Positions 16,012 to 16,680 of a stretch of 64,000 nt of DNA are shown here, piece by piece. The notes under the pieces are model-generated. The model was not told the DNA's origin. It saw only the letters and a list, made by a program, of their open reading frames with translations, and ran no database searches. Made by a program: the position numbers and the translations under genes. How positions within the stretch are numbered: the first letter of the stretch is position 1; each line of letters begins with the position of its first letter. The stretch lies in the NCBI RefSeq assembly GCF_058153355.1, contig NZ_CM177019.1. One strand, written 5' to 3'.

Positions 16012-16680
16012 CTATTTTTTCCCTGAAGCGGAAAACATTACTACAGTACCTTGAACCTTGGTTTTAACATTCTCGAAATGCTCTGAGAGTATATGTGTTA
16101 AGCCTTCTTCGGAATCTTTTGTGTTTGAAAAGATGCCTTTTTGATTGTAAATGCGCATCAGTTTTTGACCGAAGCTATTGTGCACAACTCCATCGCCAAG
16201 AATTGTGGCTCCGTATAGAGTTCCATCATCAGTTAAGGCCTGCGCCGCATTGCGTATTACACAGCTTTTTGTAGATATATTTCCTGGCAGGCAGTGAAGA
16301 AGGTAAAACATGGAAATGGAATCAAATTGACCATGTAACGCCGCGGGATAAGGTTCAAAAACATCATGGCTAATTTTATGTTTAATTTTTGATTCCCCAG
16401 CCCTTGTAGATGCCGCGTTCAGGCTAGCTTCGTTCAAATCCATTAAAGATATCAGACTACTCTCAGGTACGTGAGTAAGGTAAAACCCAGTTCCAACACC
16501 AATATCCAGATGGTTGTTACCTAAATGTTCCAGAAAGTGTGGAAGAAGGTGTTCCTTTGTAGGACATCCCCATGCAAGCCGATTTGATACTCCCAAAACC
16601 CACCAGTCATAAAGCTTTAGGGTAAGTGGTGTGTAAATTTTAGCCCCATCATCTGTGTTTTTTTTCATTAATTTCACCAT
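16012..16680 (-). CDS. Class I SAM-dependent methyltransferase, uncharacterised
   Basis: 222 aa; motif I-like HLDIGVGTGFY; Rossmann-fold methyltransferase spacing; no specific family recognised. Confidence 0.6.
   Translation of the reverse strand: MVKLMKKNTDDGAKIYTPLTLKLYDWWVLGVSNRLAWGCPTKEHLLPHFLEHLGNNHLDIGVGTGFYLTHVPESSLISLMDLNEASLNAASTRAGESKIKHKISHDVFEPYPAALHGQFDSISMFYLLHCLPGNISTKSCVIRNAAQALTDDGTLYGATILGDGVVHNSFGQKLMRIYNQKGIFSNTKDSEEGLTHILSEHFENVKTKVQGTVVMFSASGKK

Follow-up and report, generated by a model that had tools for sequence, protein, structure and literature searches.

The gene ybcY (b0562) lies in the DLP12 prophage of Escherichia coli K-12, and both the gene and its family are already known and annotated. 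In K-12 MG1655, at ~582 kb, the annotation by the Prokaryotic Genome Annotation Pipeline (PGAP) shows a frameshifted "class I SAM-dependent methyltransferase" (SAM, S-adenosylmethionine) with a tail-fibre-assembly fragment on either side, and with appY and ompT next in order; we identify this gene as ybcY because its location within DLP12 is the position of ybcY. The same gene is found under the same PGAP label in phages 2G7b and ev243, and the annotation of phage PhiR26_1 gives its copy as "putative uncharacterized protein YbcY". Here, we describe an open reading frame (ORF) of 222 aa in a 64,000-nucleotide stretch of contig NZ_CM177019.1 (RefSeq assembly GCF_058153355.1), referred to below as the window, which is with near certainty an intact orthologue of this gene. 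The arrangement in which it occurs is an ordinary one. We favour, with modest confidence, the interpretation that ybcY is a "moron", a prophage cargo gene, encoding a stand-alone class I methyltransferase that acts on a small molecule in the cytoplasm, and consider it highly probable that the gene has no functional tie to the adjacent effector gene ipaH, their adjacency being positional.

At the DNA level, the window gene is 98.8% identical to ybcY of K-12, and it shares with DLP12 the tfa - ybcY - tfaX order and the same divergent spacer. The 2 loci differ in that the K-12 copy is frameshifted, whereas the copy in the window is intact. In addition, a lambda-type tfa is located at the 3' side of ybcY in DLP12, where the window has ipaH, and the module in the window is joined to a Mu/P2-like myovirus tail region. 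The module as a whole is collinear with 2G7b, PhiR26_1, K-12 DLP12, and a cdt prophage at 97-98.6% identity. An earlier note on this DNA, made from the letters alone, could name no family for the ORF; a profile search assigns it to phrog_2132 (E=7.9e-157, residues 5-222 against profile positions 1-218 of 218), so that the family is that of ybcY of DLP12, as also annotated by PGAP.

We take the ORF to be a real gene rather than a chance reading frame, given this profile match, the 2296 clusters (at 90% identity) into which its homologues fall, a ratio of nonsynonymous to synonymous substitution rates (dN/dS) of 0.12 against an Enterobacter homologue, and the 3-4 nucleotide differences from the phage copies of 2G7b and PhiR26_1, all of which are synonymous and leave 0 amino-acid changes. 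A search of a library with 1.84 billion representatives gave 422 matching sequences for the ORF at E<=1e-30. The called ORF is initiated by ATG and its span includes the stop codon. Its true start is probably Met5 (MKKNTDD...), since the homologues and the PHROG profile begin there and a GGTGA Shine-Dalgarno sequence precedes it. As read from these comparisons, the copy in the window is intact and under purifying selection, with all SAM-binding motifs kept. The coordinates of the gene and of the features around it are collected in Table 1.

Table 1. Features at and around ybcY, in window coordinates (CDS, coding sequence; EIEC, enteroinvasive E. coli).
Feature	Position	Strand	Basis or remark
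ybcY orthologue, called ORF of 222 aa	16012..16680	-	probable CDS 16012..16668, 218 aa
Motif I of the SAM-binding site, LDIGVGTGFY, residues 58-67	16480..16509	-	direct reading of the translation
Conserved ybcY-tfa' module of lambdoid phages and E. coli prophages	15972..17006	.	left breakpoint against the ipaH cassette at 15972
Upstream region with 2 sigma-70-like promoter candidates	16681..16736	-	motif scan and K-12 counterpart
Tfa C-terminal remnant (tfaX-like), 89 aa, divergent from ybcY	16737..17006	+	phrog_105/188 tail fibre assembly, C-terminal part
Hairpin 3' of the ybcY stop, then a U-rich stretch	15970..16006	-	folding
ipaH (PGAP ipaHe in matching EIEC genomes)	14053..15696	-	neighbour, outside the ybcY module
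Perfect MxiE box GTATCGTTTTTTTACAG, ~120 nt upstream of ipaH	15815..15831	-	motif search

To place the gene in its species, 5426 complete E. coli genomes were surveyed, in collections that include no Shigella genomes. By megablast, ybcY was present at >=95% identity in 3831 of these (~70-71%), K-12 MG1655 among them. The module of tfa, ybcY on the opposite strand, and the tfa remnant is also carried by viable free lambdoid coliphages, namely 2G7b, ev243, the PhiR series, Kati, and Turner. Counted from Met5, the phage proteins are 99.1-100% identical to that of the window, and those of 2G7b, PhiR26_1, ev243, and PhiR29 are identical to it. Only 15 of 50,697 phage records contained a homologue, all at >=99% identity, and a fold search of the viral structure library BFVD gave no close relative, returning only generic methyltransferases at <=16% identity. 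Taken together, these 2 results indicate that ybcY of phages is a single, recently spread, and nearly invariant allele.

The earlier description of the ORF as a cargo gene holds in the sense of a moron. The gene is AT-rich, lies on the strand opposite to the tail genes, and is no virion gene; its GC content is 40.5% (35% at third codon positions), whereas the window averages 49.5% and the prophage DNA on the left of the gene 52.8%. As such, ybcY is a cargo gene at the tail-fibre end of lambdoid prophages of E. coli and Shigella. The neighbouring Tfa remnant that the earlier note had pointed out was likewise recovered: the 89-aa ORF is recognized as a remnant because its alignment is limited to the last ~45 residues of lambda-type Tfa.

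Sequence motifs and the predicted structure agree in making YbcY a class I SAM-dependent methyltransferase, in line with what had been read from the letters. Pfam searches returned only generic class I methyltransferase domains (Methyltransf_12 at 6e-9, and Methyltransf_23, _25, _11, and _31). Across 29 homologues, D59, G61, G63, T64, and G65 of motif I are invariant, as are D81 at the end of strand 2, H105, and D120, while D106 is nearly so; further invariant segments are YDWWVL, W37, C39, T41, YLLHCLPG, GAT, and YNxKGIFxN. The AlphaFold model is confident (predicted local distance difference test, 90.7; predicted template modelling score, 0.87). It has the alternating strands and helices of the class I fold, with a predicted seven-stranded beta sheet and flanking helices, 2 N-terminal helices ahead of it, and a disordered N-terminus of 13 residues. 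Searches of NCBIfam gave no named equivalog, only sub-threshold matches to CpaM, RquA, and PmtA (13-17 bits against cut-offs of 162-390).

The nearest relatives of known chemistry act on small molecules. Among solved structures, none of which is a member of the YbcY family, a family profile matched juvenile-hormone-acid methyltransferase (JHAMT; 2.4e-5) and UbiG (4e-4). JHAMT (7EBS/7EC0), UbiG (4KDR/4KDC), DhpI (3OU2), and Coq5 (4OBW) share only 12-20% identity with YbcY, which is too distant for a substrate to be transferred. A closer match was obtained with Foldseek against AFDB50, where "Methyltransferase verB" (A0A1V6NVX3) aligned at 36% identity (E=3.7e-25, template modelling scores 0.91/0.89), and where vrtF and a Cladonia "putative O-methyltransferase" were also found. 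VerB is of similar size (228 aa) and matches over the whole length, and uncharacterised fungal relatives of YbcY reach 42-47% identity. The link to VerB comes from Foldseek, since a homologue search seeded with a fungal member gave no named AurB, CtvB, or VerB among its best 120. DovB, the counterpart of VerB, and AurB, CtvB, and AstB O-methylate an alpha-pyrone hydroxyl of polyketides (PMC12312803). In contrast to ybcY, the genes for VerB/DovB, AurB, and CtvB lie within polyketide synthase (PKS) gene clusters, and the enzymes act on the alpha-pyrone that the cluster makes (PMC12312803).

Most members of the wider family are, as far as their genomic positions tell, encoded at chromosomal single-gene loci, spread over Enterobacterales, Pseudomonas, Betaproteobacteria, and fungi. 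Single chromosomal genes encode homologues at 56-65% identity in Salmonella, Enterobacter, and Yersinia: that of Enterobacter has a branched-chain amino-acid ABC transporter with DUF4156 on one side and a hydrolase on the other, and that of Salmonella, which stands for a cluster of 1111 member sequences, near cybB, ydcF, and hrpA. In 2 lineages of Pseudomonas, a stand-alone chromosomal homologue is found in the order DUF6388, methyltransferase, enoyl-CoA hydratase, and Janthinobacterium has a stand-alone chromosomal gene as well. The earlier note had named a family present in core genomes away from prophages as what would speak against its reading, and these homologues in Salmonella, Enterobacter, Yersinia, Pseudomonas, and Janthinobacterium are largely of this kind. 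A Salmonella protein at 79% identity is encoded in mobile or cargo DNA, near PerC and a transposase. Databases contain many truncated variants, and the fusion proteins of the family are mostly faulty gene models or extensions that bear no annotation.

Fungal relatives share 36-47% identity with YbcY, and the homologues of Pseudomonas and Janthinobacterium are ~50% identical to a fungal family member. Such a level of identity between kingdoms is unusually high, and suggests either horizontal transfer or a very conserved substrate. Several further observations were made on outlying members. The fungal members of Endocarpon, Fusarium, Aspergillus, and Penicillium are ~50% identical to proteins of Pseudomonas, Janthinobacterium, and Rhodanobacter. 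In Citrobacter braakii, a homologue at 68% identity lies beside sodC, a transthyretin-like gene, dinI, sopA, and a Phage_tail_L fragment, in the cargo region of a decayed prophage. A remote member, P0217 (510 aa; 5423-6955 of a metagenome contig), carries a fused N-terminal domain of ~300 aa, and the cluster around it encodes LuxE, NifU, a class V aminotransferase (NifS), a U32 peptidase-family protein, an FAD oxidoreductase, and an MMPL transporter. This cluster may represent a pathway of lipid- or quinone-like hydroxylation and methylation, and is too remote for any transfer to YbcY.

Under the interpretation that we favour, ybcY would be transcribed alone from a sigma-70 promoter in the 56-bp spacer between ybcY and tfaX. 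As the region is AT-rich, its expression would probably be damped by H-NS, and transcription would probably end at the hairpin behind the stop codon. The protein would stay in the bacterial cytoplasm, where it would use SAM to methylate a metabolite or xenobiotic that is small and probably hydrophobic, the acceptor atom most likely being an oxygen (enol, phenol, or carboxyl). The lysogen would benefit through modification of a metabolite or through detoxification, in a manner unrelated to type III secretion or ipaH. Considered by itself, a small-molecule substrate is a fair expectation, held a shade less firmly if anything than the interpretation as a whole; O-methylation as the chemistry is a tentative proposal, made by analogy with the relatives VerB/DovB, AurB, and CtvB and with the weak matches to JHAMT and UbiG.

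The motif scan returned 2 candidates for such a promoter, TTGATT-17-TATAAT (16709..16681, minus strand) and TTAACC-16-CATAAT (16736..16709, minus strand). In K-12, the spacer between the divergent ybcY and tfaX was found by genomic SELEX (systematic evolution of ligands by exponential enrichment) to be a binding site of the RpoD holoenzyme, with H-NS, and the ybcY promoter was given as TTGATT-17-TATAAC (PMC3946193). The hairpin is a probable bidirectional terminator, as judged from folding: the 86-nt stretch that contains it (15935-16020) folds at -23.2 kcal/mol (z = -3.0). A simple terminator scan missed it; its stem is bulged and irregular.

Several points weigh against this interpretation. 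The number of promoter candidates in the upstream region of ybcY is no higher than expected by chance, and the SELEX support (PMC3946193) was obtained in vitro and from K-12, in which ybcY is a pseudogene. No PKS, tailoring, or other biosynthetic genes were found near ybcY or the bacterial homologues examined, which means that the substrate must differ from the pyrones of the VerB/AurB/CtvB type. Across twelve neighbourhood look-ups, no gene neighbour was kept between genera and no pathway emerged from context. A search of the literature on ybcY and the DLP12 methyltransferase gave no functional study among the papers retrieved, the gene being mentioned only in gene lists, deletions, and one SELEX table. 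Finally, the family may conceivably have a recurrent link to virulence cargo, by way of sodC and the effector gene sopA in Citrobacter.

The relation to ipaH can be read from the genomes surveyed. While ybcY is found in some 71% of them, ipaH occurs in only 9, with 71 copies altogether, and the junction between the 2 genes was found in 8 genomes, once in each, so that at most 8 of the 71 ipaH copies adjoin ybcY. In all other genomes with ybcY, homology to the window starts only at ~15969-15971, ~40 bp past the ybcY stop. In one ipaH-bearing genome (H79), an ipaH paralogue occupies the corresponding tail-fibre position, and the genes listed for the match include no methyltransferase. Since the homology of the other genomes breaks off in this way, ipaH and its promoter region are best read as a later insertion, in one lineage, into the short spacer beside a pre-existing tfa-ybcY-tfa' module. 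Allowing 3 mismatches, no second MxiE box was found in the whole window, and none ahead of ybcY; the sole box serves ipaH. Hence, the proposal of a second cargo gene or effector travelling with ipaH was not borne out by the co-occurrence check that had been suggested for it, as ybcY spreads independently of ipaH.

These counts bear directly on the idea that YbcY is another effector of type III secretion, which would accompany IpaH and methylate a host protein in the manner of NleE/OspZ. The position of ybcY next to ipaH, the disordered N-terminal 13 residues, and the location of the 68% identical Citrobacter homologue within a few kb of sopA are consistent with such a role. YbcY and the effector cysteine methyltransferases NleE and OspZ also have in common the use of SAM and, in some genomes, the proximity of their genes to effector genes. 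However, the fold of NleE is different and non-Rossmann, whereas that predicted for YbcY is a Rossmann-type class I fold, and no similarity to NleE/OspZ was found by phmmer against the PDB (E<=1) or in a family-profile search (E<=0.01). Moreover, ybcY is spread independently of type III secretion: besides its distribution relative to ipaH and the absence of a MxiE box ahead of it, an identical protein occurs in phages grown on K-12, E. coli C, and ECOR13, and homologues are chromosomal in Pseudomonas, Janthinobacterium, and fungi. We consider this role the least probable of all, and only marginally less so than methylation of phage or host DNA as an anti-defence or epigenetic measure against restriction, which is itself highly improbable. 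Orphan DNA methyltransferases are frequent in phages, and PADLOC gave a weak match to mad2 (E=0.0033, 14 bits), which we take as noise. Against this stands the absence of DNA-methyltransferase features, on which the earlier note was right: a regular-expression search found neither PP[YFW] nor PC[QK], and so neither a (D/N/S)PP(Y/F/W) nor a PCQ motif, the only string of this kind being the lone "ENV" in FENV. The protein is a single domain of 218 aa, with no target-recognition domain, its gene lies opposite in strand to the tail genes and belongs to the cargo end, not to the early region, and its family is mostly chromosomal outside phages, with some fungal members.

Methylation of tRNA or rRNA, by which YbcY would tune the translation of the lysogen, is compatible with the predicted fold; it is unlikely, yet less so than these 2 roles. 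YbcY has no RNA-binding or zinc-finger extension and a single cysteine in its N-terminal region; RlmA-like rRNA methyltransferases differ in having an N-terminal Cys4 zinc-binding domain. Its best relatives at the sequence level are small-molecule O-methyltransferases, and the family is patchy (outside the E. coli core, inactivated in K-12, and present in some fungi), which would be unusual for an enzyme of the translation machinery. Slightly less probable again is that ybcY is a decaying passenger without current function, as in K-12. The frameshift of the K-12 copy and the many truncated variants would fit this, as would the decay of the prophage in the window itself, in which a transposase gene lies between the tail-fibre genes. 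On the other hand, the ORF in the window is intact and its protein identical to the copies of viable phages, from which it differs by synonymous changes only; dN/dS across genera is low, and the catalytic-site motifs are all kept. A small-molecule methyltransferase of the lysogen is the interpretation that we retain.

Extending this interpretation, YbcY could be a true enzyme of lysogenic conversion, captured once from an enterobacterial chromosome, spread by prophages to ~70% of E. coli and to Shigella, and O-methylating a small molecule relevant to the gut. Although we regard this extension as doubtful, its candidate targets would be a microbial toxin of the pyrone or quinolone type, a bile or plant phenolic, or an endogenous acid. 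If it were true, lysogens would gain an advantage in fitness or colonisation, and the ~50% identity between the proteins of Pseudomonas and fungi would point to a widely shared, still unnamed substrate. With its presence in 71% of complete genomes and a family that reaches fungi, ybcY is among the most widespread prophage-borne genes of E. coli without an assigned function, while in K-12, the standard laboratory strain, the gene is frameshifted. Among characterised proteins, those closest to YbcY are enzymes acting on small molecules, not effectors or anti-defence factors, and the gene has no special tie to Shigella virulence. Naming its substrate would fill one small but common piece of lysogenic conversion.

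The flanks of the module gave a number of further observations. In E. coli 2017-02-2CC (NZ_AP027764.1, 2078434-2089177), tfa, ybcY, and tfa' lie at the same chromosomal site, at yodB-zinT-msrQP, with cdtABC (cytolethal distending toxin type I) on the other side of the module and a macro-domain gene adjoining the tail fibre. The spacer around tfa-ybcY-tfa' repeatedly gains virulence cargo: ipaH in the window, cdtABC in this strain, and, in DLP12, appY/ompT. A full-length match to CssrB (Rfam RF02799, "Chromosome-encoded Shigella sRNA B", sRNA being small RNA) was also found in the window, at 15824-16003 on the plus strand, where it occupies the spacer from the start of ipaH to the stop of ybcY (230 bits, with a gathering score of 76; E=2e-52). 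The MxiE box adjoins the 5' end of CssrB, and the hairpin at its 3' end is the one located downstream of ybcY on the other strand, so that CssrB seems to borrow its terminator from the older tfa/ybcY module. A literature search on CssrB found no paper. Within the Tfa remnant, Rfam RF02111 (IS009) matched at 16760..16963 on the plus strand (129 bits against a gathering score of 117), so that this "RNA family" coincides with a decayed protein-coding fragment.

The earlier note placed the ORF inside an att-bounded prophage end, a reading that is tentative. By eye, a sequence at ~17340-17411 on the plus strand resembles a tRNA 3' half that runs from the anticodon stem up to ...GGTTCAAATCCCCCTCTCTCCGCCA, and it is likely a remnant of an att core. 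ARAGORN called no tRNA gene in the whole window, and Rfam gave only partial, sub-threshold matches to this sequence. The sequence to the right of 17006 is contiguous in 423 E. coli genomes, some of which have unrelated DNA to its left. Compared to E. coli 2017-02-2CC, ~1 kb with yodB (cytochrome b) is absent between the prophage end and zinT, at 17861-18084.

To the left of ipaH, the prophage (1395-13873) encodes a Mu/P2-like myovirus tail module with a tape measure, baseplate hub and wedge, and 2 tail-fibre genes, between which lies the gene for a transposase of 523 aa (phrog_688; 9022-10593, minus strand). This left prophage is non-lambdoid, although the module joined to it is typical of lambdoid phages; we read the element as a mosaic, decayed prophage, to which the ybcY-tfa' module is a mosaic addition.

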